Below, in pieces: positions 1,044 through 22,827 of a stretch of DNA of 24,091 nt. The notes below the pieces were generated by a model. It was not told the origin of the DNA. It ran no database searches and saw only the letters and a list, made by a program, of their open reading frames with translations. This stretch comes from Bdellovibrionota bacterium FG-1 (GTDB taxonomy: Bacteria; Bdellovibrionota; UBA1018), in the NCBI GenBank assembly GCA_051382295.1, contig JBBCAW010000035.1, positions 1 to 24,091 on the forward strand, read 5' to 3'. Each line of letters starts with the position of its first letter. Within the stretch, counting starts at the first letter, position 1. Position numbers and translations under genes: made by a program.

Positions 1044-1044
1044 G

Positions 1045-3073: not shown

Positions 3074-4426
3074 TTATTTAACATTATTTTCACACCACAT
3101 AGCATCCGCGCAGTCATTCATCCGTTGCGCGTGAGATCGCGCTGCATAGCCAGCGCTTTCGTTCTCTAACCGCTGCCGGGTGGAGTCGTCCTGCGCGGCA
3201 AGGCCCTCCTCGGCGATGTATTTCATCACTTCGCCCATCGGCCGGGCCTGCTCCTGGCGAAGCTGGAGGGTCATCTCCACCTGGTCCTTGAGCCCCTGGC
3301 GCTTGGATTCGATCTCCTGCCTGCGGTTGGGCGGAAGGTTTGGATTCTGGCCAGCCACCGTGAGGACGTCGATGGAGCGGTTCATGTCGCGGGTGAATCC
3401 CTGCATCGCCATTGCCTGCGCGAGCTTTAGGCAAATACGATCACGCCGTATTGGTGGCAAAAACGCCAGATTGCGAACCACATCGGGGGTGAGCATGGGC
3501 GCCTCGGCCTCCGTGCCGGTGGACGGAAGTGCTTTCATCCGGCGCGCAATCTCGGCATCGGTCACGTAGTCGCGGCCGCTTGCGATCGCGGGTAGGAGCT
3601 TGCCGCAGAACTCGGCTGAAATCTGGTTTTCGAGCGAGAGCAGATACGAGCGCGGTGAATACGCATTGGCGCGCGGCCCGTACTCGACCCGCACATTGCC
3701 TTGCGCCAAGACGGTATCGCCCACCAGGGATTGCAGGAGCCCCGTCACGCGTTCGCCTTCGGCGCCCTGGAACCCTGCCCAGTGAGCCGAGTCAGCGAGC
3801 AGACGATTGGGTTTATTTGGATCGTTAGACCCACCCGCCCAATTTCCCGCCTTGGCCTCGAAAACCCCATTCTGACATTGTGAAAGGGCCGACTCCATGT
3901 CGCCGCCATTTCGTTGGATTGAGCGCTGCACGCAGGATTGGCGTTCGCGGTAGTAGTCTTCCACGCGCGAGTCGGTGTACTTGTCGATGATCTGACACTG
4001 ATTGAGTCGAACTTGAGTGAGGAGATTGGCGGAAACCTGCGTGTGCTTGAGGATCGCGCACCAGGTCGGCGACATATAGCAGGCCGCGAGCATGGGCGCG
4101 CTGCCAAGAATGTCTTGGGCCATACCCTTGAAGTAGTCGCCGCTCAGAAACTTGCCAAACGTCGAGCGAAACGTCCCCTCAATGTTGATCTTTCCGCAGT
4201 CGGAGCCCACCGCGAGGTTCACGCCGAGATCCACGGGCGTGAGCGTCTCGAAAAGATCGTTGCGGCGCTCGGGATTGGGCGCGAAAAGGTAATCCTGGGG
4301 CTTGAGCCGCGCGGATTGGTGAAAATCGGATCCAAATCCGAAGCCATCTGCTCGGACATCTCCGGTCAGCCACAAGAGCAACATCGTGACTGCCACCGCG
4401 AAAGGCCAAAGCCATTTTTTAATCAT
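3074..4426 (-). CDS. Exported Cys-rich conjugal transfer protein, TraH-like
   Basis: N-terminal signal peptide. SDCGKINIEGTF and AACYMSPTWCAIL resemble the TraH CGGID and CPxC segments. C-terminal coiled coil; ATGA-coupled to traC. Confidence 0.6.
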   Translation of the reverse strand: MIKKWLWPFAVAVTMLLLWLTGDVRADGFGFGSDFHQSARLKPQDYLFAPNPERRNDLFETLTPVDLGVNLAVGSDCGKINIEGTFRSTFGKFLSGDYFKGMAQDILGSAPMLAACYMSPTWCAILKHTQVSANLLTQVRLNQCQIIDKYTDSRVEDYYRERQSCVQRSIQRNGGDMESALSQCQNGVFEAKAGNWAGGSNDPNKPNRLLADSAHWAGFQGAEGERVTGLLQSLVGDTVLAQGNVRVEYGPRANAYSPRSYLLSLENQISAEFCGKLLPAIASGRDYVTDAEIARRMKALPSTGTEAEAPMLTPDVVRNLAFLPPIRRDRICLKLAQAMAMQGFTRDMNRSIDVLTVAGQNPNLPPNRRQEIESKRQGLKDQVEMTLQLRQEQARPMGEVMKYIAEEGLAAQDDSTRQRLENESAGYAARSHAQRMNDCADAMWCENNVK

Positions 4427-7029
4427 GACCTTCCCCCTGCTTCTGGCGGCTCTTTGGTACCAAGCGGATAACGTGCGACGAGATCTTCGAGCGCACGGCC
4501 TGGCTCACCCGGAAACTGCGCCAACGTCTTCTGGGCCTCCAGGGCATCTGGCATGTGGGTTGGCATCAGCCAAAGCTCATGTCCCGAGGGGATATTGCGA
4601 AACGCCCCCGAGACCGCCTTGCTCTTGTGGAGGTAAAACAGGTCGGCATGGCTCCCGCGCACAGTGCGCAAGCTCTTAACGATCTGAGTTGATGCTTCAT
4701 CGAGGAGGTTTGAGTTCTTGGCGATGAAATCGACGTTATCTTCCTTCATCGCGAGAAACAGAAAGTGATCGGCCACCGACCACATCGCCTGGCCGGCCGA
4801 CAGGTCAAAATAGTTGCGCGGGTTAGGTGTGAGTCCGATCAGGAAAAAGCCGAGCTTGCGGAAGGTCTCGGCGGCGTCGATGACAAAGTCCTTCGCGACC
4901 GGGTTGTTCCGCCCGAGCATTCCCAGCTCCTCAATCACAATATAGCCGCCACGGGTGCGGGCCTCGTCGGTTTTGATACGTCGGCGGATCTCGTCGACCA
5001 CGCTCATCGTAACGAGAGTCTGGAGAATCGGATCAGCGGCCAGGCCATCCAAATCGAAGACGTGGAGGTCCGCCCGCGCGCGGCTTGCCTTTGCCTCAGT
5101 CTGGCGAAAAAAAGACGCGTAGATGCCATCCCCATAAAATGGGCGCAGTTTTTTTGTGATCTCTTCGACGAATTGCCCGTATTTTTCGTATTCGGGATCT
5201 CCGGTCAGGCCGCCGTGCTGAGCGATCACGTCATCGAGCATGACAGTTGCCACGTCGTCTTGCGCGCCATCGACCAGCTTGCCGTCGTGGTAGGTCACCC
5301 CGGCTGATTGGCTTCTTGATTCATAGGCGCGGCGGAGCGCTTGCGTAAGGCAGGTGCGGTGTTCAGAATCAAGTTGAAATTGTGCGGAGCTGAGCTGCAT
5401 CGCGCTCGTGAGAAGCTGCACGAGAAAACGCAACTTGTCTTCGTCCAGCTCACCGCGAAAAGGCGAGAACGGCATGGGTTTGCCCTGCTCAAAAGTCGTA
5501 AGCTCCGATGGGAGATACTGCGAGAGCATTCCATAGCTTGTCTTGTAGTCGATCACGAAGATCAGTGGCCGAGGCTCGCGCCGGAGCTCGCCGAGAAGGA
5601 TCTTGATGATCTGCCCTGACTTGCCGGAGCCGGTATCGCCGAGAACCGCGACGTGATGGGAATTGCCGACGGATTTGAGGCGAAATGGCACCAATCCATT
5701 TTCTCGCGAGCTAAAAATCGAGCCCGGATCGCTGCTGGTTCCGCGAAATGTGTCGAATACGGGACAAAACTGTACGACATCAGACGCCAAGATGCGGATG
5801 GACCGCTTGGTGGTCCAGTCAGCCATCGGATGATAATTCAGTGGAAGCGCGTTTAGCCAAAGTCCCAGGCCAATCTCGCTTTCGACGATCGCTTCGCATT
5901 CCAAACGCTGTTGGAAACGCGCCAGGCATTCTTTGGTCTGGCGGTCGAGGGATTCGTCATCGGTTCCTTCGAGGAGCACGCAAAATGTCATCTGAATCAC
6001 GCGATCATCGCGCACAAGTTTTTCTTGCAGCTCATCGACCTCGGCTTTTTGGCGCCGCGAGCGAGCCGATGGCGTGTTTTGAAGGAAGAACTCTTTGACG
6101 CCGAAATGCCGCTTGATGGCGGCTGATGATGGGAACGACACGTTCACAGAGATGCGGAACGGAAAATCGAGGCCGAGGAAGTAGGCCATCGCACCGGGAT
6201 AGGCAAATGACGGCGCGTTTTTGAGCGTGATTGTTCGGGTGCGGACACCTTCGCGCTCAATGCCGGGGTAATCCAGGGTGCTGGAGCAATAGATAACCTG
6301 CTCCGAGAGAGGAAGATTGGGGTTCACCTTGGCGAATGGGCGGCGGTAATAGGTAACAGGGTTGAAGGTGCGGCGCAGGACGTCGGCCAGGTCTTCACCT
6401 GTGAGGCGCTGCAAGCGCAGCGGAGAATTCAGCTCGAACTGCGAAAGCGAGTGATTGAAAGCGCGTAGCTGCCGCAAGAACGATTCCACTTCATTGGAGA
6501 GGGTCCGATCTGGGTTTGCCAGCTCTCCTGCGATTTTCTGAAACCGAAGCGTGCGCGAGTCCCGTTTGGGGAAATTTCGCACGGACAGCAGCAACCTTCT
6601 ACGCAAGGGCTCTTGCTTTCGCTGCCGCTCGACGTTCGCCAGATGAAGCTGCGCCGGGATGTCGCCGCGGTGCTGGTCCTCGGGCGAAACCCAATGATCC
6701 CAGGCGGAATCGTAGGGAGACAGGCGCGCCTGATCAAAAAGTAGCGACAAGACCAGATCGTCTCCGATCCGAAACCAGCTCTTTAGATTCCCAAGAAGGC
6801 TCACGATCTCCTGAGCGGTTTTGGTCTCGTGCTCACAGAGCGCCACCTCGTAAACCGCGCCGAGGCTCCCATCTTTCTGACGAAAGAGGCCAAACTGCGG
6901 CAGGTATTCGTCATAGGGCAGATATCGGCTGAGACTCTCGGATCGCTTGAAAAGCGCCTGAGCAAAGGTTTCCTGTGATGCAAGTGCCGCCTTGAGGACA
7001 TCGGGTAAGTCGGGAAGGTTTGGTTTCAT
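4423..7029 (-). CDS. traC: VirB4/TraC-family T4SS ATPase
   Basis: 868 aa. YLPYDEY N-terminus, Walker A GDTGSGKS, IFVIDYKTSY, Walker B variant YIVIEE, ETFRKLG. Lies directly after traB-traV. Confidence 0.88.
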   Translation of the reverse strand: MKPNLPDLPDVLKAALASQETFAQALFKRSESLSRYLPYDEYLPQFGLFRQKDGSLGAVYEVALCEHETKTAQEIVSLLGNLKSWFRIGDDLVLSLLFDQARLSPYDSAWDHWVSPEDQHRGDIPAQLHLANVERQRKQEPLRRRLLLSVRNFPKRDSRTLRFQKIAGELANPDRTLSNEVESFLRQLRAFNHSLSQFELNSPLRLQRLTGEDLADVLRRTFNPVTYYRRPFAKVNPNLPLSEQVIYCSSTLDYPGIEREGVRTRTITLKNAPSFAYPGAMAYFLGLDFPFRISVNVSFPSSAAIKRHFGVKEFFLQNTPSARSRRQKAEVDELQEKLVRDDRVIQMTFCVLLEGTDDESLDRQTKECLARFQQRLECEAIVESEIGLGLWLNALPLNYHPMADWTTKRSIRILASDVVQFCPVFDTFRGTSSDPGSIFSSRENGLVPFRLKSVGNSHHVAVLGDTGSGKSGQIIKILLGELRREPRPLIFVIDYKTSYGMLSQYLPSELTTFEQGKPMPFSPFRGELDEDKLRFLVQLLTSAMQLSSAQFQLDSEHRTCLTQALRRAYESRSQSAGVTYHDGKLVDGAQDDVATVMLDDVIAQHGGLTGDPEYEKYGQFVEEITKKLRPFYGDGIYASFFRQTEAKASRARADLHVFDLDGLAADPILQTLVTMSVVDEIRRRIKTDEARTRGGYIVIEELGMLGRNNPVAKDFVIDAAETFRKLGFFLIGLTPNPRNYFDLSAGQAMWSVADHFLFLAMKEDNVDFIAKNSNLLDEASTQIVKSLRTVRGSHADLFYLHKSKAVSGAFRNIPSGHELWLMPTHMPDALEAQKTLAQFPGEPGRALEDLVARYPLGTKEPPEAGGRS

Positions 7030-7436
7030 TGGACGTTCCTTGGTTTGCCCTTTGCGCGCCGCTTGGACGGGTGAATTGCGCGTACCGCAGCGGGCGTGTC
7101 GGAATCGTCATCGGGCTTCTCGAAGGTCCACTCGTCGGCGGCGACAACTAGAGAAACGTAGCCTCCCCAGAAATAATCCCTGGTTGGGAGTTCATGCGGG
7201 TAGAGGTAAACTTTCGCGATCCGAGGCGAGGAACGACGCACCAATGAATCTGGGTTGTGGCGCGCGCGCTGATAGAGCGCCACCTCTTCGTCCTCCGCGT
7301 CGGCGCTGTAAGCAGCTCGGCTGTCGAGCATTCGCAGCGACGGAGCCCGATTCTGGCATCCCGCCATTGAAAAAGCTAAGGCGAGGAAAATGACGTTAGT
7401 CCACGAGTTTTGTGAAATGCGAATAGACTGAAGCAT
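7026..7436 (-). CDS. traV: TraV-like lipoprotein
   Basis: Lipobox MAGC and a TraV-like core RSSPRIAKVYLYPHE...GGYVSLVV...W. ATG at 7436 with AGGAGG upstream. Confidence 0.75.
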   Translation of the reverse strand: MLQSIRISQNSWTNVIFLALAFSMAGCQNRAPSLRMLDSRAAYSADAEDEEVALYQRARHNPDSLVRRSSPRIAKVYLYPHELPTRDYFWGGYVSLVVAADEWTFEKPDDDSDTPAAVRAIHPSKRRAKGKPRNVQ

Positions 7437-8760
7437 GAATTGCGCCTCCTGATTCGTTTTGAGCAAAATAGTCACGCGGCAGGTCCACCTGGTCCTGCAT
7501 CACGATCCAGACGTCCTGGCCGGACCCCACATTGATCGTCGGTAATAAATTCTGCGCTTGTTTGAGATACCACTGCGTCACCATCGTTGCGGCTTCACTG
7601 GCACCACCGGCGCCGATGTATTTTGCCTGATCGCCAGTGAGAACCGATTGGCTGCCACCAAGCGGAGTGGTCTGCTGCGTGGTCTGGGCTTGTTGGATCG
7701 CCTTTCCAATCCCGGAGACGACGCCAGCCAGAAACGCGGTAGCGGCAACGCGATCCTGTTTGGTGTTGACAGAGCCCATCACCGCAAACGAGTTGTCCGC
7801 GTCGTCGGCGATGAAGCCGTTGACCTCGCGCTCAAACATGCCGCCGCTCTTTGATACGCACGAGAGTTTGGTCGCCTGCATTTGCACGCGCTCGGTCGAC
7901 AAGTCGCCCTGAGCCTTGGCGATGATAAAGCAGCCCGCCAGATCGAGGCGTTTGTGGTTGGGGATGACATATGCAAAGTCGAGTTGCATGAGCACCGGGT
8001 AGGATTTCCCCTCGGGGGCCTCGACGCCGGTCAGGAGCTTGGCCCTCACATAGCTTCCGCTCGGAAGGACGATGCCGGGCTCGTGCAGAAAGACTCGCCC
8101 TGTGGTCTTGACCGGAAAGGAGATCGTCGGCGAGCCTGGCTTCATTGAACGTGGCCGGTCGATGACATCCATCCCAAATCGTGGGCGGGAGGGTCCGGCC
8201 TGTGAAGTGTGGGTCGTGTCCGAATTGGCGGCAGGCTTTTTCACTCCACTTATTTGGGTGCCGCCGTAGTCTTCAGCGGGATTGCTCATCTGAACCTGCG
8301 TCATGGCCTTCGCTGGATCGCCACTCGGAGTTGGTGCGGGTGGACCGTAGGTTGCGCTGGTATCGGCAGCGATGGGCACGCCTGACGGCCCGGCCGCTGG
8401 TGCGTGATTTTGGTTCACGAGTTGGAGTTCCGCGTGCAGCTTTTCGACCTCGGTTTTAAGCTCCTTTTGACCGGCGATGAGATCGCGCTGGGTTTGGGAG
8501 AACTGTTGTTCCTCGCCCTTGAGGATTGTCTTGCCGGGATTTCCGAGGATGCTCGCATTCTTGAAGTCAGGAATTCCCTCGCGCTGAAAAATGGTTTTGT
8601 GCTCGTCGGGGCTGTTCGCAGCAGTGAGCAGAACCACGGTGAGCCCCGCCGCACCGCCGATCCAGAGACCGGGCTTTTTGCGTATCGTTTCGACGAGATT
8701 GCGTTCGGTCATTCGGGCAATTGAGCGTTTCATTACACTTAGGGCACATTGAAGTTTCAT
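7396..8760 (-). CDS. traB: TraB/VirB10-like core complex protein
   Basis: N-terminal TM, coiled coil and Pro-rich linker, then LPSGSYVRAKLLTGVEAP and GCFIIAKAQGDLSTERV typical of F-type TraB. Confidence 0.88.
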   Translation of the reverse strand: MKLQCALSVMKRSIARMTERNLVETIRKKPGLWIGGAAGLTVVLLTAANSPDEHKTIFQREGIPDFKNASILGNPGKTILKGEEQQFSQTQRDLIAGQKELKTEVEKLHAELQLVNQNHAPAAGPSGVPIAADTSATYGPPAPTPSGDPAKAMTQVQMSNPAEDYGGTQISGVKKPAANSDTTHTSQAGPSRPRFGMDVIDRPRSMKPGSPTISFPVKTTGRVFLHEPGIVLPSGSYVRAKLLTGVEAPEGKSYPVLMQLDFAYVIPNHKRLDLAGCFIIAKAQGDLSTERVQMQATKLSCVSKSGGMFEREVNGFIADDADNSFAVMGSVNTKQDRVAATAFLAGVVSGIGKAIQQAQTTQQTTPLGGSQSVLTGDQAKYIGAGGASEAATMVTQWYLKQAQNLLPTINVGSGQDVWIVMQDQVDLPRDYFAQNESGGAIHASVYSHFTKLVD

Positions 8761-9578
8761 TTGGAATCACCTCCCTTGGATTCGTTTTTTCCTTCGCCTC
8801 GGATTGCCACTGGCAGAATGATCCGCTGGGACGATGCTCCGGGCTTGGCGACGATTCGAAGCACGGTTTGCCTTTCTTCGGCAGTCTTGCCGCCGATCTG
8901 GAATTGGTCGACCCCGGCCAGAACCGCGAGATTGGGCTGGCCGATTGAAAGGCCCTTGAGGTCGATCTCGAAAGCGTGATCCGAGCTATCGGTTTTGAGG
9001 ATATAGACGTATCCGTTGACGTCCTTGCCAGAGTAGACCTTGACGAGCGTGGCCGATAGGTGTGGCGAACCCACTCCGATAGCTTGTGAACGATGACTCA
9101 GGTCAAAGCCTGCGACATTTTCGCTGCGGATCATCGCACGCATGAGATCCAGCTCAGAGATGACCATCGGATCGTGTTTTTCTGCCAGGTTCGGATTGGC
9201 GGCCGCGAGGTCATCCTTCGGCTTGAAGTCGTAGATCGAGTCTTTTCTGAGATTGGGGCGGTTCGCAATGACAAGCTGAGTTCGGATTACGCTTCCATTC
9301 GACAGGATGAATGTCACGTCCGCAGCGCCCTCACTCATGCGCGGTTTCACGGCAAGAACGCTGTAGTCGGGCTCGTCAGAGTTGGAAGGTCGGATCTCAA
9401 AGCGACTCGCCTCGGTGACGGTCTTCACTTCCATCGGAAAGCGGAATAACGATTCCACGCCGAAGGCTACCGGGATAGTCTCGCGGGCCTTTCCATACAC
9501 AACAAGGCGCGCACTGGCAGTTTCAGGAAGTCCCAAAAATAGAATCAGCAGACTTGAAAAAATAATGGCGCGTTTCAT
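8757..9578 (-). CDS. traK: TraK-like exported core protein
   Basis: Signal peptide, beta-rich N-terminal domain, ELDLMRAMI segment. Lies between traE and traB with ATGA overlaps. Confidence 0.65.
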   Translation of the reverse strand: MKRAIIFSSLLILFLGLPETASARLVVYGKARETIPVAFGVESLFRFPMEVKTVTEASRFEIRPSNSDEPDYSVLAVKPRMSEGAADVTFILSNGSVIRTQLVIANRPNLRKDSIYDFKPKDDLAAANPNLAEKHDPMVISELDLMRAMIRSENVAGFDLSHRSQAIGVGSPHLSATLVKVYSGKDVNGYVYILKTDSSDHAFEIDLKGLSIGQPNLAVLAGVDQFQIGGKTAEERQTVLRIVAKPGASSQRIILPVAIRGEGKNESKGGDSK

Positions 9579-10399
9579 CGGGAGCCCTCCACGCTGGGTT
9601 TCGGCGGTGGCACCGACATTTTTGATTTAACGCGAAACGCGTTGGCGTCTTGACTGACAAGTTTCTCGATTTCGAGATACCAACGGCGTCCGGCTTGCGG
9701 CGGAATGAGCTTAAGCACCATTTCGATCACGATGTCTGTTGCGCCAATGTGCTCGTTGTTGACGAAGGAGTCTTTTCGACCAATCGCCGTGACGTGGTAA
9801 TATCCATCGCCACTGGAGCGGATCTCTTTTTCTGTAATCGAAAGAATCTGCGCGATCCCTTCGTCTTTAACTTTTGCACGCCAGGGCGCGGCCTCAAGTT
9901 CAAACTGGACGCGTAGGTCAGGACTCATACTGTCGGTCAGTCTACGGTACTGTTCCTCGATGTTGGTCGGGCTGAAGTTGCCAAAGGTCTGAAGAAATTC
10001 CATCGCGGCGTTTTGAACGTGCGAATCCGGCACGCTTTGCGGTGAAACGGCGATAAAGTCCTGCACGCCCGGCGCCAGGATGTATTCCTTGGCGCGAAGT
10101 TTGGTATTGAGTCTGTAGACTTCCCAGCGCGAGCCGAGGAAAACGACTAGAAATGCGGTCGCCAGGATCGCGAGCCAGAATTGAAGCGCGACTTTCTCTC
10201 GCAGTAGGGCCGCCTTGTAGCAGATGAACTTGGGCAATACGCGAAGATCCACACCGTCCACCACATGCGCCGGAGGTGTCTGGAGTTTCGCAGCCTCAAA
10301 GCCCTTTTCCATGGGACCGATGACATAGCTGTGTAGGAGGCGCGAGGCCTCTTGGTTCAACGTCTTGAGCGATTCTTTTGCTACGGTTTTGATTTCCAT
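9575..10399 (-). CDS. traE: TraE-like membrane protein
   Basis: Single TM followed by ILAPG...FGNFSPTNIEEQY, resembling TraE. RBS GAGGAG; gene order fits. Confidence 0.65.
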   Translation of the reverse strand: MEIKTVAKESLKTLNQEASRLLHSYVIGPMEKGFEAAKLQTPPAHVVDGVDLRVLPKFICYKAALLREKVALQFWLAILATAFLVVFLGSRWEVYRLNTKLRAKEYILAPGVQDFIAVSPQSVPDSHVQNAAMEFLQTFGNFSPTNIEEQYRRLTDSMSPDLRVQFELEAAPWRAKVKDEGIAQILSITEKEIRSSGDGYYHVTAIGRKDSFVNNEHIGATDIVIEMVLKLIPPQAGRRWYLEIEKLVSQDANAFRVKSKMSVPPPKPSVEGSR

Positions 10400-10408
10400 G
10401 ATTGCTCC

Positions 10409-10720
10409 TCAGTCTGATACGCGACGGCGCATTCCCGGATTGACCAGGCCAGGTAGGTGCATCTTGAAGCGCCGATAGGGGTAATGAAATGCCATCCCCT
10501 TGTTGAAGTTGCGCCGCACGTAGGGGAGCCCGATCAGCGTAACGGCAAGCGAAAGGCAGAGCAGAAACCACTCGTAAAAGAGCACGCCGAGCACCAGGAT
10601 CAGGAATAGCGCAACGAAGATCTCGGAAAGCTCCCAGACATCAAAGAGCGTGATCGGGGAATCGAGGGTCTGACTCACTGGACGCCCCAGAGTGCGGCGA
10701 AGCTCGGAGTAATCATGCAT
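10409..10720 (-). CDS. traL: TraL-like small membrane protein (103 aa)
   Basis: SQTLDSPITLFDVWELSE, two hydrophobic segments and a basic tail. ATG at 10720 overlaps the pilin stop codon. Confidence 0.7.
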   Translation of the reverse strand: MHDYSELRRTLGRPVSQTLDSPITLFDVWELSEIFVALFLILVLGVLFYEWFLLCLSLAVTLIGLPYVRRNFNKGMAFHYPYRRFKMHLPGLVNPGMRRRVSD

Positions 10721-11231
10721 CGGTTCGGCCCCTATCACGAAGCAGCGCGAGCCTGGCGTTGCCGGTCTCACGTTCCTGCATCGAGAACACGCTGTCGGCA
10801 CCGCCGATTGAAAAAATGTTTTTCACCCAGGTCGGCGCGGTTCCAAACAGAATGGCGGCGATCATAGAAATGACGGCCGGACCAAAGCGCATTTCCTTGA
10901 GGCTCCAGCCTGCGCCGAAGATGCAAAGACCGGCGAGAACTCGCGCCGTCCACTTGAAGATCCCGGTGTCCACGAAACGCAGCAGCGTTCCGGCACTTTC
11001 CATCTTGGCCGATATGTCCTCTCCGGGGAGGCGGCCATCGGCCAGTGCCGGGACCGTGTGGAAGAGCACAAAGGCTGAGAGGGCTGCCAATACGAAATAG
11101 AAGAACAGCGGCGCCCAGCGCTCCAGGCCCTCCGTGAGTCGTTCCGACTGAGAATCGCTATAAGCATCGCTCGGCGTGGGCGGTGCGGCCGTTTCGATCG
11201 TGGTCGTTGTTTTCCTGATCACCTGATCCAT
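10713..11231 (-). CDS. Conjugative pilin precursor (TraA/VirB2-like)
   Basis: Long leader ending VPALA, two hydrophobic helices separated by KEMR. RBS AAAGGAGA; first gene of the A-L-E-K-B-V-C order. Confidence 0.65.
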   Translation of the reverse strand: MDQVIRKTTTTIETAAPPTPSDAYSDSQSERLTEGLERWAPLFFYFVLAALSAFVLFHTVPALADGRLPGEDISAKMESAGTLLRFVDTGIFKWTARVLAGLCIFGAGWSLKEMRFGPAVISMIAAILFGTAPTWVKNIFSIGGADSVFSMQERETGNARLALLRDRGRTDA

Positions 11232-11295: not shown

Positions 11296-11310
11296 TGCAA
11301 GGGCGTGCCA
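11296..11310 (-). promoter_or_regulatory. Sigma54-like -24/-12 motif TGGCACGCCCTTGCA upstream of the pilin operon
   Basis: Matches TGGCAC...TTGCA, with an identical copy at 22710-22724. The GG-GC spacing is 9 nt, one short of canonical. Confidence 0.6.
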
Positions 11311-11374
11311 ACTTATGGCGTTTTGGTGATGTTTGATAAGGCGTTGTTTTGTTTGGGATCAGCGGTGATCGCGG

Positions 11375-11413
11375 AGTCTCAAGCGTGAGACTGAGTCTCG
11401 GGGAGTCTCATTC
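11375..11413. repeat. 39-bp box AGTCTCAAGCGTGAGACTGAGTCTCGGGGAGTCTCATTC, copy 1; putative activator-binding site
   Basis: Identical to 22789-22827. Contains the palindrome AGTCTCA-N4-TGAGACT plus two further AGTCTC units. Confidence 0.85.
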
Positions 11414-11448: not shown

Positions 11449-12159
11449 TCAGGCTGTTTTCCTGGCGATCAGAATGGTTCGCACCAGTTCGTCCGAGTCC
11501 ACGGGCTTGGCCAGATGCGCCTGGAACCCAGCCGACAAAGCCAACTCCCGACTTTGCGAATCGGCATAGGCGGTCAGAGCTACGGCTGGAGTGTGGCCAC
11601 CCATTTCAGGACTGAGTTTTCGAATCTTTCGGATCAGGCTGTAGCCATCCTCCAGCGGCATCGCAATGTCGCTCACGATCACATCAGGCTTGGACTTTTC
11701 GAATTCTGCAATCGCCTCTGGCACTGACGAGGCCAATTTGACCTGTGCTCCAAAAGAAGAAAGCATTTCCCTTATCGAAGTCAGTGTACTTGCTTCGTCG
11801 TCCACGAAAAGCACACGAACCCCGGAAAGATCAATTCGGTCTGAAGGTTTCTTTCTATCCGTGTAACCGGAGGCTGGCGTTGGTGGGGACACATCGTAGG
11901 CATCCCCAGTGAAGCGCGAGGCTGCACCGAGCGGAAATGTTACTATGAATGTCGCGCCTTTTCCCTCGCCCTCGCTCTGTGCCTCGACCATTCCGCCCTG
12001 AAGTTTTACCAAGCGTTGAACAAGTGCCAGCCCAAGCCCCAAACCCCCGTGCACACGAACGCTCGAAGAGTCGGCCTGAGAAAACTGTTCAAAAATATGA
12101 GGCAGGAAATCGGCCGAAATTCCCTTTCCAGTATCCCGAACGCGGATCTGTGCGTTGCG
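11449..12159 (-). pseudogene. C-terminal part of the IS-interrupted hybrid histidine kinase (end of HATPase plus receiver domain)
   Basis: VRDTGKGI, IFEQF and GGLGLGL boxes. Receiver motifs VLFVDD, SDIAMP, ALTA and KPV. Confidence 0.92.
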
Positions 12160-12164
12160 TGTTC

Positions 12165-12327
12165 CGTCCCAGCAACCCGACGGCAGTTTAGCTGAGGTTA
12201 TTCCCACATAGTCGACGACACTTTTGGGGCCCCCATTCCCAGATATCCGACGACAGTTGGGATGGGGTCATTCCCAGATAAACGACGACACTTTCCGGGG
12301 TTCCATTCCCAGATAGACGACGACACC
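12165..12327 (+). repeat. Five IS21 subterminal repeats (TCCCAGATANNCGACGACA-like) at a 35-bp period
   Basis: Units begin at 12165, 12200, 12235, 12270 and 12305. Two inverted copies lie at the right end (about 14804-14852). Confidence 0.9.
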
Positions 12328-12385
12328 TGATTTCTTTTGCATTGCGGTGCGGCGGTGTTCCCTTCGACGAGAGGGGGATCATCGG

Positions 12386-13993: not shown

Positions 13994-14015
13994 TCAAAAA
14001 CAAAAAAGGACCCAC

Positions 14016-14786
14016 ATGAATCCAGAAATAGTGAAATCACTCCTGACTGACCTCCGCCTGCATACCGCGGCTCGCGAATTGGAACCCGTGCTCGCCAATC
14101 AGAAGAAAGCGGTCAGCCTCGGCTGGGCGTCCGACCTCCTGGGCCGAGAAATTGATTTCAGGCGTGAAAAGAGCCTAAAACACCGCCTCAAAACCGCCCG
14201 CTTCCCTGAGATCACGACACTTGAGGGCTTTGACTTCAGCTTCAACCCGGACATCGACGAGGAAAAAATCCGGGACCTCGCCACCCTGAAGTTCATGGAT
14301 CAAAATCAGATCGCGCTGTTTCTGGGCGCTCCCGGCGTGGGCAAAACCCATCTCGCGCTAGCCATCGGGCTTTTGGCCGTGCAGGACGGCCGGCGGGTCT
14401 ATTGCACGAGCGCCAAGCGCCTGGCCCAGGAAATTATGCTGGGAAAACAGCGCGGGCTTCTTGATCTGGTTTTTAAACGCCTGCTTTCGGCCCACCTCTG
14501 GATCATTGATGACTGGGGTGTCGTCTCGATGAGTCGCGAAGTGGCCGAGGAGATCTTTGATCTGATGGACCGCCGTAAACACAGCTCGGCCATGATCCTC
14601 ACCAGCAATCGCGACGTGAGCGAATGGGCACAGGTCTTCCCCGATCAGATCATCGCCAACGCCACGGTCGACCGGATCTTCGATCGGGCCCGCATCGTGC
14701 TTTTCAAAGGCGAGAGTTACCGCCTGAAAGGACGAATTCAGGCAAAGGATTTAAAGGGGGTTGACGAGATCGTCACAAAACACTAA
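14016..14786 (+). CDS. istB: IS21 helper AAA+ ATPase
   Basis: LEGFDFSF, Walker A GAPGVGKTHLA, IIDDWG, ILTSN and GESYR motifs. Confidence 0.95.
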   Translation: MNPEIVKSLLTDLRLHTAARELEPVLANQKKAVSLGWASDLLGREIDFRREKSLKHRLKTARFPEITTLEGFDFSFNPDIDEEKIRDLATLKFMDQNQIALFLGAPGVGKTHLALAIGLLAVQDGRRVYCTSAKRLAQEIMLGKQRGLLDLVFKRLLSAHLWIIDDWGVVSMSREVAEEIFDLMDRRKHSSAMILTSNRDVSEWAQVFPDQIIANATVDRIFDRARIVLFKGESYRLKGRIQAKDLKGVDEIVTKH

Positions 14787-14857
14787 CTGACAGCACTCAA
14801 ATCAGGTGTCGTCGGATATGTGGGACGATACTGCCGTCGGAAATCTGGGACGTGACA

Positions 14858-16558
<1,701 letters not shown>

Positions 16559-16932
16559 AACCTGGCCTCCTGAGGTACTATTGGATCAATGGGGTTCTTG
16601 ATCGCATCGTTAGGCGAGGATGGTGCGTGGTGAGGCATCATTCGAAAACAATAATGTGCAATTTTAGAACCCATGCAAACCCTCGAAAGGCCGGGCAAAA
16701 TGCGCGCAGACCCCGCGTGCTATATAATTCAATTTGTTCCGTTAAAACAGCGTAAACAGGAGCTGTCGGGCATCTTTGCGGATAACGTTCTTGCTTTTTC
16801 ATCCGTGTTTAACCCGCTCGAAACAAGGGTGAGGGAATGGGTGTGTGCCACATCCGAAGCGGTGCGTTACTTGACTTTGGGACATCTTGGCCGTTTTCAG
16901 TCCTCGGAAGCATGTTTTTGGAGTCAGGATGG

Positions 16933-17775
16933 CTATTTTTGGACAGGGGCCGGCGGGATTTCTCGCGTATTTGCTTTCTCTGAAAGGGCAGCGAGGACGG
17001 TTGGCGCCGGCTGATACCCCTGCATCTTGAAAAACGACTTTGCCTTGAGATCCCCAACCAACAACACCGGCACCGCCTGGATGCCATAGGTTTTCAGCTC
17101 CTCCGGCGACGCGTCCGTTACTGGGAAAGGGATGCGCGCTCGAATCGAGCGATCCTGGTCAATTTGCCGAAGCTCCACGTAATACCCTCGTGCCGCAAGC
17201 TCCGACATGGTGCCAATCATCCGCTGGCAATGCGGACAGTGGGAATCAAAATAAAGCCGCAGCCGAAAACGCTTTGCATCCGGTGCCACCGCCGACGGTT
17301 TTTCAACCCGCGCCGCCACTTTTGCCATCATTTCAGGGTTGTCCGATAGGCCTGTCGAGTAGGGGCTCGGCAGCGCACTCACCTTGGACGGGTTTCGCTG
17401 CGCGTATTCTGTGAGCCTTTCCTGGAGTCGGTGAAGCGTTGTGTTTTTCAGCTCGATATAGCGATACCAACGCTCGATATTCTCGTTCGTGGGGTTTCGA
17501 GCGATCTCGACGAACGGCGCTGGGGGCGTGTAGTCGCCCTCGCGAAAGAATTCGTCGTGCGCGGGATTGAGGTATTTGTCCCAGGCAAAACCCTTGGTAG
17601 GAACGCCGGCTGGACGGGACACCTTAGGCAGGATCGGGGTCGGCGGCGTGCTCTGGTCTGCGCGGCTCCAATAGTCGATGTCAGGTTTGGAGAAATACTG
17701 GAATTCATCGTCAGCGTAGGACGCCGACGTCAGGAGCGACGCTAATCCAACAAACGTCGCCAATCTACTCCACAT
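16933..17775 (-). CDS. traF: TraF/TrbB-like exported thioredoxin-fold protein (280 aa)
   Basis: Signal peptide from ATG 17775, ARNPTNENI (TraF-like), YFDSHCPHC (CxxC) and YGIQAVP (cis-Pro loop). Confidence 0.72.
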   Translation of the reverse strand: MWSRLATFVGLASLLTSASYADDEFQYFSKPDIDYWSRADQSTPPTPILPKVSRPAGVPTKGFAWDKYLNPAHDEFFREGDYTPPAPFVEIARNPTNENIERWYRYIELKNTTLHRLQERLTEYAQRNPSKVSALPSPYSTGLSDNPEMMAKVAARVEKPSAVAPDAKRFRLRLYFDSHCPHCQRMIGTMSELAARGYYVELRQIDQDRSIRARIPFPVTDASPEELKTYGIQAVPVLLVGDLKAKSFFKMQGYQPAPTVLAALSEKANTREIPPAPVQK

Positions 17776-18871: not shown

Positions 18872-18874
18872 TGC

Positions 18875-21800
18875 CTAAATTCCTCCGCTGGGCACTGCTA
18901 CGCAGGCGAGTCTGAGCGCCTGAATCGCGATAAAGGCCGCCGGTGCCTCGGCGATGTCGCGGCAACAGCTCACTTTCTTCCATACGACGAAAAGGTATCC
19001 CGTAAGTTTGCCGAGCATCCGTTGTTCCTCGCGAACGCCTTTCAAGGGTTCAAGCAGGCCAAGCGATTGTCCTTCCTTGAAGCAGGATGAACTCTGCGGA
19101 TAGAGCATCTGCCAGCTTTCACTCAGGTCGCCAGGAATGGTGTGCGTGATTTCAGCGCCCAAGCTCTTGAGTCTTGCCGCGATCATGAGTGCCGCCCCGG
19201 CCTGTGAAGCGCCGTGGTAGACACCATATCGGGGATAAAAAACGCCCCAACCGTTACAGGCTTCGCGCGGCGAAGGCGGATACTTCGGAAGCGGTAGCGG
19301 AAAACTGCACCCGCCTGAGTCCATACCGATCGAGGGCGTGGAGCCACCGCCCAAGACTCCCTCTGCCGCCCCCTTAAGAATGCAGGCCTTCGGAGAGAGC
19401 TGCCAAGCAAGAAAGCTGGGTTGAAGCAGATCGGCCTTGCCAGTTTTCCAGTCGCTGACGTCCTCGCTCATCATGTCAAAACACGGTTTGTCCATTCGGG
19501 CGCCACCGCAGGGCAACTCTGAGAATGTTTCCCCCGTCAGAGGCACCGCGATGGAGTGAGCATGAAAGCTGAATGTCGCGTTGTCATCTTCGGCGCCGAA
19601 GGGCAGGCCACCGGCGTGAAGTCCAAGTTGGAAAGCAGCCGGGTGCTGCTTGAAGAACGACTCGCTCGGGTTTGGCCAGACCTCAAGGAATGTCTGCGGA
19701 ACGTAATAGCTGATTTGGGCGCAAGGCCGAGGGATCGGCCAGCCGCACATGCACGCACCTACCTGAAAATCCAGGCACGATGAGAATTCGCCAGCCTTTA
19801 CCACCGAGCACACGTTCGGGAACAACAGCCCTGCGCGGCCTTCAGTAGCTCCGGCGAGAAAGCTGACTAACATCATTGCCACGCCAAAACGGAATCTACG
19901 GCGAGTCTTAGGCTTGTGGGGCGCGCGCCCGACTTCGGCGGCCTTTCGGAGGTCTTCCAACACCTTTCGGTGGGGCGTCCTGATGTCCGTGAGGTAGTGA
20001 GGCTTGAGAAAGAGCTTTTCGAATTGCGTTTCAAGGCCATCGAAAATCTGGGCGAATGCCTCGAATGCCCGTAGACGGGCGAATTCCCGCGCCGTGATCG
20101 GGAACTCTTGGATTGTATGGGTCGACACACCCTCGCTGATGCTCGATCTGCCGCCGTCAAAGCCGCCGAATAGGACATCGGTCTTGGCGTTTTGGGCGCT
20201 TTCGGAAAAATTATGAGAGCTTCGCTCGCGCTCGACCTGGCCGTGGGGCTCCTGAAAGAGCCGGACGGTCTTGGGGTCGGTCGTATTGCCAAAAACCCGG
20301 GTTCTGAAGTTCTGTAAAATTTCAGCCGTGGCCGAAGGACTGCGAATCGCGTTTTCGAGCGAGCTGACGCTTTGGGTGGCCGCGATCGTGATCGACTTCG
20401 ATTCGCGGGCCATCGCCAGAAAGCGATCGTCGCCCAATCCGGCGCCGCCGCCGCTGGTGGCGACATCCTGATATTCGTCCATGATCAAAAGCGCATGACG
20501 GGTAAAGGTTTGGGCCTCTGGCCCCCGGACACGGGCGAGAATGGCTTCTTGATAGAGGAGCTTGAGCAGCGTGCCGATGGAGCGCGCGAGCGCGTCGTTT
20601 TCAATATGAATACAGATCATCTTGCCCTCGCGAACCGCCCAGGTCATCGAGGGGAGATTGATTTCACTGCGTTCCGGCGAAAGTACGCGGGAGACTCGAT
20701 ATTCCAAAAATTCGTTGAGAAAACTCGTAGCGGTCGCAAGAATGCTGGTTCGGATTTTCTCGTCCATTTGGGTGAACTCCGAACGAAAATAGTTCGTCGC
20801 CATCTCTAAATTGCCGCGTTCTTCGGCATTCCATTTGTTTGCACTCTCGGGCGTGGCTAGGTAGCTCACCAGCTCCTCGACAATCTTTCCGTCACGCGCG
20901 TCCACCAGGGCGCGATACAGTTCCTTGAACGTGAAATAGTCATGTTTGGCCGCGCAATAAATCAGCGCGGTTTTGAGCAAATTGAAGCTGGATTGCTCCC
21001 AGAATCGGCTATCGGATGAGCTGCCGATAAAATTCATGGATGCCAGGCGCAGGCTGTTGGCGACCGCCGTAAAGTTGGACTCTACGAGCATCCCCTCACG
21101 CCAGATCGGGTTGAACCGAACCGTCGCGGCGCCGGATTCTAAAGAAACCCACAGGAGTCGATCCTTCATGCCCAGGCTCTCAATAATCCGTCGAAGCTCG
21201 CGGACGAAAGTGCGCTTCGGGTCAATCGCCAAGAGCGTCGGGCTTTCGCTGAAGTTCAGCAGGCACTGTTTGATCAGGCGGAGGAGCACCTGCGATTTAC
21301 CCCAGCCGATCGCGGCCGTGATAAGAATATTTCCGGTCATCCCCTTGAGACCCTGGCAGCGCCATTCGGTGGGCTTTCCGGCTGGTGGCGCCGGATCACC
21401 TGTGAGGCCACACTCATGAATAGCACCGAGGACGATGCCGTCCTGGATCTCGGGCGCCCGTGGCAGACGATTCTGCCATGGAAAGCTCAGGGAGCCGACG
21501 GTAACCCAGGTCGAGGCATGGCGGAGAATGAGTCCGAGACCAATCCCGGTTAAGAAAAAGCATACCGCGAGCCCCTGAATCCAAGCTGTAGTCGTGAGCG
21601 CGAACGGAAGCAGCCCGATCCTGACGAGTACAAACTGCCGCGCCAAGATCCACGCGGCAACCACCGCGCCAATGTTGAATCCGACAGCCGTCTTCCATGA
21701 CGGTCGTTCGGTCTTTTCCTGAACGCTTCGGCCTGTCTTCGAGCGCAACGCCATCTTTTTGAAATGTCGCTGTGCAAGAGTACCAACCCAAAGCACGTTA

Positions 21801-22000: not shown

Positions 22001-22004
22001 TGGA

Positions 22005-22490
22005 TTAGGCCTCCGTTTCCATTGGGGGCGTTGGTTCGCCGAGAGCAATGGTTGCCTCATCCCACTCGTCAAATGCCGGTCCCGGCGGAACGTCGCGGGT
22101 CGGTAGTCCGAGGTTGTTCCATCCTTCGGCGGCTACCTTCAAGGTATGCAGGCGCTCGACCTTGCACACGTCAAAGGCCACGATCTCGACCGCCGACCGC
22201 TTTTCGCCTTCTTTCCCGGTGTAAGCTGACATCCGCAGCTCACCCTTGACCATGACAAGGTCACCTTTCTTGACGCTGCCAAGAATCTTTTCGGCGAGGC
22301 GTCCGAAGCTCGAAACCTGAAACCATTGCGTACTCTTCTGTACGAGTTTTCCGGTTTCTGGCTCGCTCCCCAGCACTGACTGCGCGATAGCGAATCCGAC
22401 GACGGGCTTGCCGTCGCGAGTTCGCGCTCGCGCGACGGGGTTGGCGCCGACGTTGCCCACGAGAGACACCTGATTGGTCAGCATGCTCAT
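22005..22490 (-). CDS. ssb: Single-stranded DNA-binding protein
   Basis: NQVSLVGNVG, TQWFQV, KKGDLVMVKGEL and EIVA OB-fold motifs. Confidence 0.92.
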   Translation of the reverse strand: MSMLTNQVSLVGNVGANPVARARTRDGKPVVGFAIAQSVLGSEPETGKLVQKSTQWFQVSSFGRLAEKILGSVKKGDLVMVKGELRMSAYTGKEGEKRSAVEIVAFDVCKVERLHTLKVAAEGWNNLGLPTRDVPPGPAFDEWDEATIALGEPTPPMETEA

Positions 22491-22654
22491 ATGCGAAAGC
22501 TCCCCCAGCGGCGGATGTCGAGCTGGATCTCTTCGCGGCGTTTTCGGGCGTTGTCTTGATAGCGGTTTCCCTCGCCGCCTTGCCAATCTGTCGGGGGCTG
22601 CTCCGATACCTGCTTTAACCAGTTACGAATCGCTCCAAACCATTTCTTCAGCAT
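22487..22654 (-). CDS. Small hypothetical protein, 55 aa (not in the ORF track)
   Basis: AGGAGG RBS, ATG at 22654, TGA overlapping the ssb ATG. Translation: MLKKWFGAIRNWLKQVSEQPPTDWQGGEGNRYQDNARKRREEIQLDIRRWGSFRI. Confidence 0.75.
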   Translation of the reverse strand: MLKKWFGAIRNWLKQVSEQPPTDWQGGEGNRYQDNARKRREEIQLDIRRWGSFRI

Positions 22655-22709
22655 AAGTCCTCCTGTTGTGCGTCCTGAGTCTCAGGCCGCGTGTTTGGAG
22701 AACCACTTA

Positions 22710-22724
22710 TGCAAGGGCGTGCCA
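22710..22724 (-). promoter_or_regulatory. Sigma54-like motif TGGCACGCCCTTGCA upstream of the ssb operon
   Basis: Identical to 11296-11310, in the same orientation relative to the downstream operon. Confidence 0.6.
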
Positions 22725-22788
22725 GCGGGGAGTGAAAAGTGTCGGGAAGGTATCTTGCGGAAAACGCTATGGTCTTGGTGTTTTGGAT

Positions 22789-22827
22789 AGTCTCAAGCGT
22801 GAGACTGAGTCTCGGGGAGTCTCATTC
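22789..22827. repeat. 39-bp GTCTCA box, copy 2
   Basis: Identical to 11375-11413, with the same 64-bp gap to the sigma54-like motif. Confidence 0.85.

Follow-up and report, generated by a model that had tools for sequence, protein, structure and literature searches.

A Bdellovibrionota family of probable conjugative elements with a VirD4::TraU fusion and a PilB-type ATPase, possibly a new class of mating-pair formation system

Which kind of transfer machine is encoded in a 24,091-nt contig of Bdellovibrionota bacterium FG-1 (the window, analysed at its full length), and where does it belong among the known T4SSs? The original prediction proposed a new subtype of the F-like systems, built from two co-regulated operons with a coupling protein fused to TraU, a PilB-type motor and a single-strand DNA-binding protein (SSB). 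Its reading of the genes is sound, as a traA-L-E-K-B-V-C-H-like run and an orf55-ssb-T4CP::traU-pilB-like-traF run are real, with coupled ORFs on the minus strand that follow the stated order and whose starts and stops overlap or abut (Table 1). We consider it highly probable, from sequence comparisons, that the window holds the mating-pair formation and coupling genes of an integrative conjugative element (ICE) from a family restricted to Bdellovibrionota, which would work by the mechanism proposed below. Conjugation in this phylum is essentially undescribed in the literature that we searched.

Table 1. Features of the window, with their coordinates and the evidence for each name
Feature	Position	Strand	Evidence
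Three tandem tyrosine recombinases, inserted immediately beyond traH, outside the transfer machine	141..3008	+	each matches Pfam Phage_integrase
TraH/Tfc22-like periplasmic protein, 450 aa, Cys-rich	3074..4426	-	PF06122 E 0.0013
VirB4/TraC ATPase, 868 aa	4423..7029	-	PF11130 (TraC_F_IV) over Pfam cut-off
TraV-like lipoprotein	7026..7436	-	lipobox Cys conserved; family profile
TraB/VirB10	7396..8760	-	PF03743 (TrbI) 2.9e-21; PRK13729 1e-30
TraK/VirB9-like	8757..9578	-	TraK_C E 0.011; position; C28 paralog 1.2e-4
TraE/VirB8-like	9575..10399	-	PF05309 E 0.0037; C28 paralog 2.8e-6, over cut-off
TraL/VirB3-like	10409..10720	-	PF07178 E 7e-4; start overlaps traA stop
VirB2/TraA-like pilin	10713..11231	-	PF04956 E 0.069; leader and two hydrophobic helices; family consensus conserved
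Cassette 1: enhancer-like repeat array and sigma54-like box, spacing one base short	11296..11413	-	
PAS histidine kinase/receiver hybrid, cargo, interrupted by the IS21 element	11449..16558	-	related gene on contig C92
IS21 element, repeated terminal inverted repeats	12160..14857	+	istA 12347-13993 (NF033546), istB 14016-14786 (NF038214), both over cut-off
TraF/TrbB-like, thioredoxin fold, CPHC motif	16933..17775	-	PF13728 over cut-off; motif conserved; start overlaps pilB stop
PilB/GspE-type ATPase, 368 aa	17765..18871	-	profile scores, motif alignment (T2SSE ATPase over Pfam cut-off)
VirD4::TraU fusion, 1041 aa	18875..22000	-	TraU and TrwB_AAD_bind/T4SS-DNA_transf in one ORF
Linker inside the fusion, similar to a signal peptide, with a small-X-small signal-peptidase-type site at its end	19829..19915	-	
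Single-strand DNA-binding protein	22005..22490	-	PF00436 7e-21; sub-clade accessory
orf55, small ORF	22487..22654	-	ribosome-binding site; coupled to ssb
Cassette 2: enhancer repeat as in cassette 1, with a sigma54-like box of equally short spacing	22710..22827	-	
PLD-like nuclease-domain gene, probably defence cargo	22875..23912	-	weak PF09565 and PF13091 matches

Pfam cut-offs are exceeded by VirB4, TraB, TraF, the T2SSE ATPase, SSB and both domain sets of the fusion, but not by TraH, TraK, TraE, TraL and the pilin, whose names also lean on synteny and family alignments; the TraH, K, E, L, A and G labels are low-score, weak assignments. Ten of 30 TraH family members match PF06122 (best 4.7e-7), and the nearest named Atlas clusters are the MPF-G-type “integrating conjugative element protein” (0.97). 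TraV, with zero Pfam matches in the window, has a family profile that finds F-type TraV at 3.8e-9. The window pilin was rejected as a type IV prepilin, as the prepilin motif is absent and the protein shows a leader and two hydrophobic helices. No family match was obtained for orf55, which is without a paralog in the genome.

We fetched 71 related loci (36 + 35), of which 27 after de-duplication span both ends. The two gene blocks occur widely together in them, in the family order (virD4::)traU-pilB-traF-traA-L-E-K-B-V-virB4-traH-traG-relaxase module-xis-integrase. The proposed two operons are not a family trait, since the traF-traA gap is below 400 bp in 29 of 34 junction-spanning loci, and the split in the window is local cargo; neither is SSB a core part, being confined to a few loci of the window's sub-clade. 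The only conserved unlabelled gene in the transfer run is an occasional small ORF after virB4.

The class of the system is best approached through VirB4, whose best NCBIfam and plasmid matches are F-type TraC. The TraL, E, K, B, V core and the TraA pilin stand in F order (K, L and pilin scores are weak), and TraF, TraH, TraG (TraG_N E 3e-8 in sibling element C28) and TraU, described as F/G hallmarks in a section of PMC4027160, are all present. These facts would suit a fast-evolving member of MPF-F (or MPF-G) devoid of TraW, TrbC and TraN, whose separate branch would be an artefact of divergence or thin sampling. A topology that forces the family next to F remains acceptable (p-AU 0.156), and reference sampling was thin, with the single MPF-T reference misplaced beside F in the large tree. 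However, VirB4 scores 154 of 567 bits on TIGR02746, where nine F references reach 428-894 and three G references 84-138, and 103 of 521 bits on TIGR03744; its identity to plasmid VirB4 proteins does not exceed 23%. In all three trees a branch sets F (10 references, support 100) and G (support 100) each apart from the family, G being a five-member clade in two of them, and in the large tree the family nests in an unnamed clade of 64 rows with support 99. A sister-group signal to G, with support 97, fell to 41 with wider sampling. As for the missing genes, also unrecognised in the original prediction, none of five carrier genomes matches TIGR02743, PF09673 or PF06986 at E 0.1, with E. coli controls detected; the contiguous gene run has no room for TraW, TrbC or TraN, and very divergent copies could lie elsewhere. 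No NCBIfam match to G-specific Tfc genes (RAQPRD, TIGR03747, TIGR03759, two pilins) was obtained among the 21 window proteins. Membership of MPF-F or MPF-G is doubtful to us: in the trees run VirB4 falls in neither described clade, and the label “subtype of F” gives way to a branch that lies outside F as sampled and may be an MPF class of its own.

The fusion of coupling protein and TraU was correctly recognised, with both domain sets over the Pfam cut-off in one ORF (36.7 bits against 26.5 for TraU). Four N-terminal membrane segments are followed by a TrwB-fold motor (residues 179-671), the linker (about 696-724) and the TraU domain (727-1041). Like other coupling proteins of the VirD4/TrwB kind, it has membrane segments at the N-terminus, Walker A/B motifs and the TrwB fold, and the structure model of the motor matches TrwB with a fold Z of 28.4 and an rmsd of 3.3 over 376 residues. 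The fusion is conserved, as 107 of 116 clusters extend over 96% or more of the stretch from motor to TraU. Is TraU then a permanent part of the pump? The linker could be an uncleaved membrane anchor tying the pump to periplasmic TraU, so that substrate loading would be coupled to the mating-pair machinery. The survival of the fusion across 39-100% identity, its apparently ancestral state (free TraU is nested among fused forms) and some forms in which the N-terminal membrane part is a separate ORF and the linker the sole anchor left all speak for such an attachment. Against it, 102 of 106 parsed homologue junctions retain a small-X-small site (53% in shuffles), and in 59 of 106 it falls exactly at the mature start (19% in shuffles), at the place where the signal peptide of free TraU has its own cleavage site; this conserved internal site suggests a cleaved polyprotein. 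Linkers also vary freely in sequence and length (31-62 residues, counted from the final conserved motif of the motor), and in elements that lost VirD4 the same TraU survives behind a normal signal peptide. In the window itself the linker is weakly hydrophobic, under the hydrophobicity threshold, and is modelled as a low-confidence helix. Internal ribosome-binding starts were as rare in the fusion as in the control (1/17 each). We thus give lasting attachment a rather low chance, and favour a single VirD4::TraU chain whose linker would act as an internal signal peptide. TraU would then be exported, and signal peptidase I would most likely release it; otherwise it would stay tethered.

The PilB-type ATPase is real too, GspE/PilB-like by profile (GspE 302 and PilB 300 bits versus PilT 156, TraJ 79, DotB 69 and VirB11 56) and placed between traU and traF in all 32 loci spanning both. 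Its Walker A/B, Asp box, His box and four-Cys motifs are intact, and invariant in 24 aligned copies except for one Asp-box position. Such a protein might instead drive host type IV pili (PilC, PilA, secretin) for mating contacts, as with the thin pili of R64 and PAPI-1 but borrowed from the host, whose genome has pilB-pilT-pilC and gsp clusters. The longer family members speak for this too, as they keep an N-terminal MshEN domain, and in one long form an MshE-type c-di-GMP motif is over the cut-off. The N-terminal domain of such ATPases binds PilM/GspL, and all of it has been lost in the window's sub-clade, which counts against a host-pilus motor. So do the fixed place in the transfer operon and the co-divergence of the ATPase with VirB4 across host classes (Mantel rho 0.58, 0/2000 permutations, 25 elements). 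In the tree, host PilB/GspE attach inside the element ATPases on a long branch, and monophyly of the latter is not supported. The prepilin motif is found in 0 of 1231 ORFs, and no conserved gene for a PilC platform, prepilins, an alignment complex or a secretin appears among the unlabelled gene clusters. The claim that F-type systems lack such an ATPase meets a published exception, and PilB inside an F-like system is already known: ICEAfe1 of Acidithiobacillus ferrooxidans, an F-like ICE, carries among its tra genes (PMC6370655, Table 1) a 396-aa pilB (COG2804), listed as the VirB11 equivalent, a further point against the host-pilus role. That role looks rather improbable, and we lean slightly towards a third T4SS motor, which would fill the place taken elsewhere by VirB11 or DotB, with c-di-GMP gating in the long forms.

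Since the window is the whole contig, absences in it are uninformative on the content of the element. TraG and a relaxase, not recognised in the original prediction, adjoin traH in the complete siblings C28 and C19 of the same genome, which also carry mobC, xis and an integrase, with a PF03432 relaxase. Integrase, excisionase, relaxase, coupling protein and VirB4 are thus found at one chromosomal locus in both siblings and in related loci. This relaxase, of MOBP type, retains its N-terminal Tyr and His motifs; a relaxase module, of MOBP or another type, is present in 24 of the 27 loci. Downstream of traG, an oriT-like site (a shared 10-mer behind a GC-rich element) occurs in 11 of 17 regions. 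In one of six regions examined an attachment direct repeat was seen, as two copies (23 and 22 bp) of the 3' end of a tRNA-Asn at 55-60 kb upstream of an element without a relaxase module; no such repeat is visible for the window's copy. In 8 loci, tRNAs stand directly outside the integrase or recombinase. Of the suggested “ICE or plasmid”, it is the ICE that stands, directly in the siblings and, for the window's copy, through contig C58. This contig is probably its other arm, carrying TraG and relaxase: TraG of C58 is 94% identical to that of locus L010, and L010 in turn shares 94% identity in VirB4 and 92% in TraH with the window. No direct assembly join between both contigs was seen, and the window contig ends in a repeat common to nine other contig ends. 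The copy is interrupted by the recombinase trio, which we take to be a RIT-type element; with this cut, and with a C58 link based on identity, it may be decaying.

The family is almost confined to Bdellovibrionota, in 39 of 401 sampled genomes (about one in ten), and a carrier often has several divergent copies. A secretion system for proteins or a DNA-uptake system, domesticated for predation, would fit the largely predatory hosts and the three of 27 loci without coupling protein or relaxase beside the T4SS, but is very improbable given this patchy presence, the divergent copies, the frequent relaxase and the integrase and xis kept even in those three loci. Repurposing for uptake or effector export, also suggested originally, loses ground in the same way, as relaxase, oriT-like site, integrase and tRNA attachment favour conjugation.

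The DNA-processing module follows the coupling protein. In the 27 loci, VirD4 is fused to TraU in 12, all with MOBP, frameshifted in one, with MobC, and absent from 14, where free TraU comes with an FtsK-type ATPase and MOBC (11) or without module (3); mixed states were not found. In these loci the FtsK-type ATPase (PF01580 over cut-off) never occurs together with VirD4, and its 11 loci form a single sub-clade, so that the replacement of VirD4 and MOBP counts as one event.

Both gene blocks are preceded by the same promoter cassette, as proposed, with a 39-nt identical repeat (11375-11413 and 22789-22827) followed by the same -24/-12-like box. The spacing consensus of sigma54 -24/-12 boxes is strict, and the host genome has 32 canonical sites. 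As in sigma54 promoters served by a bacterial enhancer-binding protein, there are -24/-12 boxes, a repeat 77-89 bp upstream and neighbouring genes for a kinase and a GAFTGA activator: kinase and activator lie upstream of the cassette in loci L109, L111 and L114, and a GAFTGA-intact ortholog is on contig C75. In contrast to the canonical GG-N10-GC, all 12 copies with a box read GG-N9-GC, which counts against the use of sigma54. From its sequence, the cassette is a sigma54-type enhancer/promoter with a putative activator site.

In the mechanism that we propose, an element-borne histidine kinase and NtrC-type activator would bind the repeat array and turn on sigma54 promoters before ssb-virD4::traU, traA and traG. 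Integrase and excisionase would circularise the element, and MobC and the MOBP relaxase would nick oriT just downstream of traG. VirD4 would then pump relaxase-ssDNA into a reduced channel of TraL/E/K/B/V, VirB4, TraG, TraH, TraF, TraU and a VirB2-type pilin. A bolder reading, tentative as a whole, would be a ninth, Bdellovibrionota-specific MPF class within a larger unnamed VirB4 radiation, with a signal-peptidase-processed VirD4-TraU polyprotein, a c-di-GMP-gated PilB replacing VirB11 as pilus motor, a DNA-processing module swapped for an FtsK-type pump and MOBC in a Gram-negative host, and sigma54 promoters whose one-base-short spacing is usable by the element's own activator only.

The function of TraU has been described as unclear in a passage of PMC10018362, and a natural minimal F/G-like machine without TraW, TrbC and TraN would give a handle on it, the fusion being a Rosetta-stone link between coupling protein and TraU. 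The family is also a test case for the use of type IV pilus motors by F-like systems, and the exchange of VirD4/MOBP for FtsK/MOBC, which happened naturally while the channel stayed the same, bears on single- versus double-stranded DNA transport by FtsK-type couplers. The cassette would be a conserved exception to sigma54 promoter spacing, and the family could yield a native tool for delivering genes to predatory bacteria.

How does this family compare with known systems? With MPF-F (F, IncC, IncH, SXT/R391) it shares the TraA-L-E-K-B-V order, a TraC-like VirB4 and TraF, TraH, TraG_N and TraU homologues, but its TraG has about 495 aa, its coupling protein is fused to TraU, it has the PilB-type ATPase and its relaxase is MOBP or MOBC instead of MOBF/MOBH. 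With MPF-G (ICEHin1056, ICEclc, Legionella GI-T4SS) it shares a short TraG (505 aa in ICEclc, as given in PMC10018362), TraH-like and TraU-like genes and the ICE lifestyle, and its TraH looks closer to the G-type protein; MPF-G, however, has a separate coupling protein and a MOBH relaxase, and its traU lies downstream of virB4, not upstream of the pilin. ICEAfe1, compared by its published description, resembles the family in pilB and a divergent TraC, and differs, in the parts of PMC6370655 concerned, by separate TraD and TraU, TraW, TraN, a 1218-aa TraG, a TraA-type relaxase and four clusters. MPF-I and Dot-Icm likewise use a type IV pilus-family ATPase, but their TraJ/DotB are PilT-like according to a section of PMC4027160, whereas the element ATPase is PilB/GspE-like with a four-Cys motif. 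Finally, the FtsK sub-clade, to which the window's own copy does not belong, recalls the MPF-FA elements with TcpA (pCW3, Tn916, ICEBs1) in that its FtsK/SpoIIIE ATPase occupies the place of the lost VirD4, beside a different relaxase; according to parts of PMC12857230 and PMC3548315, TcpA occurs in some Firmicutes MPF-FA systems only, whereas the sub-clade has diderm hosts and a MOBC-like relaxase.

Every ORF of the original prediction was found in the window, which is one complete contig among the 158 of this genome, and all of them run on the minus strand in translationally coupled fashion. Pfam and NCBIfam searches bore out VirB4, TraB, TraF, SSB and the GspE/PilB ATPase, together with the proposed T4CP::TraU fusion, a single ORF of 1041 aa with matches to coupling-protein and TraU domains. 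TraH, TraK, TraE, TraL and the pilin remained below cut-off in these searches and TraV gave no Pfam or NCBIfam match in the window; their identities are backed by family profiles and paralogs. The cargo separating the two gene blocks is a hybrid histidine kinase disrupted by IS21, and beyond traH a trio of recombinases precedes the contig end. A hexanucleotide tandem repeat encodes a long Glu-Asn run in the PAS region of the kinase, which could vary in length. Defence-like cargo adjoins these elements, comprising a PLD-domain nuclease, a methylase, a SIR2/HerA-like pair (judged by eye) and a metallo-hydrolase (Table).

The same genome carries two complete siblings of the element, on contigs C28 and C19, and fragments on C63, C58 and C14. 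Past traH, both siblings carry traG, mobC, a MOBP relaxase gene (PF03432, with MOBP-type top NCBIfam matches) and then genes for a conserved protein of 115 aa, an excisionase-like product and a tyrosine integrase, so that the TraG and relaxase not recognised originally do belong to the system. On C58, a copy of the promoter cassette seen in the window is followed by traG-mobC-relaxase-xis-integrase. The TraG encoded there shares 94% identity with the TraG of the related locus L010, and L010 in turn matches the window at 94% (VirB4) and 92% (TraH) identity, against 70% for C28; because of these identities, C58 is probably the other arm of the window's element, with no direct join visible in the assembly.

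Scans with a VirB4 alignment retrieved 36 loci from species genomes and 35 from metagenomes. Nearly all records with a name belong to Oligoflexia, Bacteriovoracia or Bdellovibrionia, and the few with other or unspecific labels may be cases of mis-binning. A profile of the fusion matches 39 of 401 genomes of the phylum, three of them only weakly and on the motor part. Bdellovibrionota are accordingly the likely hosts. The synteny search across genomes and MAGs placed both gene blocks together in one fixed order, [virD4::]traU-pilB-traF-traA-L-E-K-B-V-virB4-traH-traG-module-X-xis-int, where the module is that of the relaxase. Once nine near-duplicate loci had been removed, as also for the sets of 32 and 27 loci below, traF and traA lay less than 400 bp apart in 29 of the 34 loci spanning that junction; the split into two operons, taken originally as a trait of the system, is therefore local. 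The reported lack of TraW, TrbC and TraN held in all five carrier genomes examined. Two records of the one-genome-per-species collection (L028 and L029) are 99.99% identical across 22.5 kb, through either recent transfer or a binning duplicate. A search of sequencing runs listed no RNA run as containing the window, and the DNA shares were small.

These elements probably function as conjugative ICEs of the F/G type. tRNAs lie directly past the integrase or recombinase in eight loci, and in one element, which also has raised GC, the tRNA 3′ end recurs 55-60 kb upstream in copies of 23 and 22 bp; attachment repeats were absent in five of six regions examined. In 11 of 17 MOBP regions a shared 10-mer, which may resemble MOBP nick sites, stands behind a GC-rich element downstream of traG. 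Three loci (L015, L025 and L040) hold complete mating-pair clusters and an integrase with no coupling protein or relaxase nearby, and one of them, the element with the 23- and 22-bp copies, has clear tRNA-Asn attachment repeats. Between the relaxase module and the excisionase, nearly all elements encode a conserved protein of 111-152 aa, possibly a ribbon-helix-helix regulator, with weak MetJ likeness (0.87) and unnamed Atlas clusters rich in Bdellovibrionota.

The structure of the VirD4::TraU fusion was predicted from 105 sequences with a pLDDT of 88 (a four-row alignment gave 35). The model has four helices at the N-terminus and then a motor of TrwB fold (Z 28.4); a linker, modelled as a helix with low confidence, sets the TraU domain apart from it. 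The fold searches matched the motor domain only and barely covered the TraU domain, which has a mean of 13 cysteines versus 5 in the motor. The linker is signal-peptide-like, combining basic residues with a short stretch free of charge and a small-X-small site, the cleavage rule of signal peptidases. This site occurs in 102 of the 106 junctions that could be parsed (10 of 116 proteins were left out), versus 53% of shuffles, falls precisely at the mature start in 59 of the 106, versus 19% of shuffles, and lines up with the signal peptides that free TraU proteins carry. We thus lean towards a polyprotein that would be cut by signal peptidase I, a reading weakened by the low hydrophobicity of the linker in the window's own copy. 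Its rival leaves the linker uncleaved and TraU tethered to the coupling protein. An internal translation start for TraU was rejected, as no sign of one was found, and an assembly or frameshift artefact is ruled out by four paralogs in this genome and by 107 of 116 protein clusters covering the full motor-to-TraU span. Apart from this putative polyprotein, one record (P0033, 1361 aa) joins coupling protein, TraU region and PilB-type ATPase, possibly through a frameshift. Fusion forms of ~800 aa (P0037, P0044, P0059 and one in L020) miss the N-terminal membrane part, which in L020 is encoded by a separate 197-aa ORF upstream.

The motor is of the PilB type, as predicted: the ATPase scores 300-302 bits with PilB/GspE profiles versus 56 with VirB11 (PilT 156, TraJ 79, DotB 69), and it keeps every catalytic motif as well as the four-Cys motif. 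It is present in all 32 loci spanning traU-traF, and its distances follow those of VirB4 (rho 0.58; 0 of 2000 permutations). No prepilin or platform protein is encoded in the elements. Host PilB/GspE forms a long branch that joins inside the set of element ATPases, whose monophyly is unsupported by the tree. An MshE-type c-di-GMP motif exceeds cut-off in the long ATPase forms and has been lost in the window's sub-clade.

Among the 27 loci reaching both ends, 12 combine the fusion with MOBP; in 11 others TraU is free, and traG is followed by genes for an FtsK/SpoIIIE ATPase and a MOBC-like (replication-relaxation) protein. Three have a free TraU and no module, one has a frameshifted VirD4 with MobC, and none is mixed. 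Free TraU forms are also common in the protein collection. Since the FtsK loci group as a single clade, nested among fused forms in the VirB4 tree, the swap to FtsK/MOBC is, on this phylogeny, a single event, and the fusion looks ancestral. A possible donor type is an unrelated T4SS on contigs C24 and C115, which has a similar FtsK/MOBC pair (~26% identity). This second T4SS type of the genome, with its VirB4, FtsK-like ATPase and replication-relaxation protein, is unclassified in the trees. Coupling proteins of the TcpA type are described, in the parts of two sources that deal with them, as restricted to some Firmicutes systems (PMC12857230, PMC3548315). Upstream of traU, FtsK-type elements (L026, L028, L031-L033 and L067) carry pairs of small genes for helix-turn-helix proteins of the sigma70-region-4 type, preceded by a canonical sigma54 promoter.

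The shared promoter cassette predicted ahead of both blocks of the window was confirmed as an identical 39-nt repeat followed, ~89 bp on, by the same -24/-12-like box. The cassette occurs in 5 of 401 genomes, ahead of ssb, traA, traG and mobC, and 12 of its 13 distinct copies, some from the same element or near-duplicates, have the downstream box. All 12 boxes read TGGCAY-N4-TTGCA, one base below the sigma54 consensus, whose spacer is given as N5-7 in the relevant part of PMC12316311. The distance from repeat to box is 87-89 bp in ten copies and 77-79 bp in two, a difference of one helical turn; short-spaced boxes in helical phase with the repeat array are found in the window and in L006, L007, L010, L011 and L099-L102. 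The host genome has 32 canonical sites and nine short ones (five in these elements); other spacings give a background of 4-7. Sibling C28 and the Bacteriovoracia elements combine different repeats with the canonical spacing. A second sigma54 factor was rejected as the explanation of the short spacing, with one rpoN match in each of 21 genomes. In L109, L111 and L114, a kinase and a GAFTGA activator, a pair whose mechanism we draw from the portion of PMC7057263 describing it, lie upstream and group in a single clade with a gene on C75. In L114 what follows this same pair and the cassette is a T4SS of another, smaller kind; the regulatory module thus travels between elements that are unrelated. 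In L006 and L007 the traG start codon follows the -12 box by just 13 bases, which suggests a nearly leaderless transcript.

Table. Positions of the features discussed in the text.
Feature	Sequence	Position
Cassette copy with short-spaced box	window	11296-11413
Cassette copy with short-spaced box	window	22710-22827
Hexanucleotide repeat of the kinase	window	15962-16045
Defence-like cargo	window	22875-23912
Defence-like cargo	C75	383-8788
Defence-like cargo	C28	14944-17180
Second T4SS type	C24	3995-12670
Second T4SS type	C115	34288-45371
Conserved 111-152-aa protein	L011	13545-13889
Fusion form of ~800 aa	L020	830-3238
Kinase/activator pair, cassette and smaller T4SS	L114	2994-20000
traG start codon close to -12 box	L006	10332
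traG start codon close to -12 box	L007	4012

The literature searched holds no account of the family, the VirD4::TraU fusion or the short sigma54 spacing, and supplementary tables of the CONJscan type may list these loci; the text of a comparative-genomics paper on Bdellovibrionota (PMC11656739) contains no conjugation or T4SS terms. Among 72,556 plasmids, the best VirB4 match reaches 23% identity and none covers the fusion. In VirB4 trees with 10 F, up to 5 G, one T, one B and one unclassified references (I, C, FA and FATA not being sampled), the family is a clade of its own outside F and G, with a stem as long as that of MPF-G. Topology tests did not reject a position sister to F (p 0.156) and rejected F+G excluding the family (p 0.008). 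We do not claim a sister relationship with MPF-G, for which support of 96-97 in two trees fell to 41 with wider sampling. The wider tree, with 91 full-length metagenomic representatives out of 150 matches, sets the family inside an unnamed clade of 64 rows (support 99) that is separate from F and G; in this tree the base is poorly resolved and the T reference misplaced. A broad radiation of unnamed metagenomic VirB4 proteins (P0117-P0266) branches apart from the F and G clades sampled here. With TIGR02746 the window's VirB4 scores 154, close to the 84-138 of G references and well short of the 428-894 of F references. On VirB4 and gene content the family falls outside both MPF-F and MPF-G, and the proposed subtype of F is unsupported; that it represents a new class combining all of the unusual mechanisms seems doubtful to us.

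The eight-class MPF scheme, in the part describing it, makes TraU, TraH and TraF common to F and G (PMC4027160). For F systems, TraW is reported as required and TraU, TrbC and TraN as strong contributors in part of 10.1101/2023.12.05.570194, and ICEclc requires IceU, the function of TraU being called unclear in the corresponding passage of PMC10018362. The premise that F-type systems lack a VirB11-class ATPase has a counterexample in ICEAfe1, whose F-like tra genes include a pilB of 396 aa, given as the VirB11 equivalent in the section of PMC6370655 describing the element. Compared by that description, ICEAfe1 differs from the present family in having separate TraD and TraU proteins, TraW, TraN and a long TraG.
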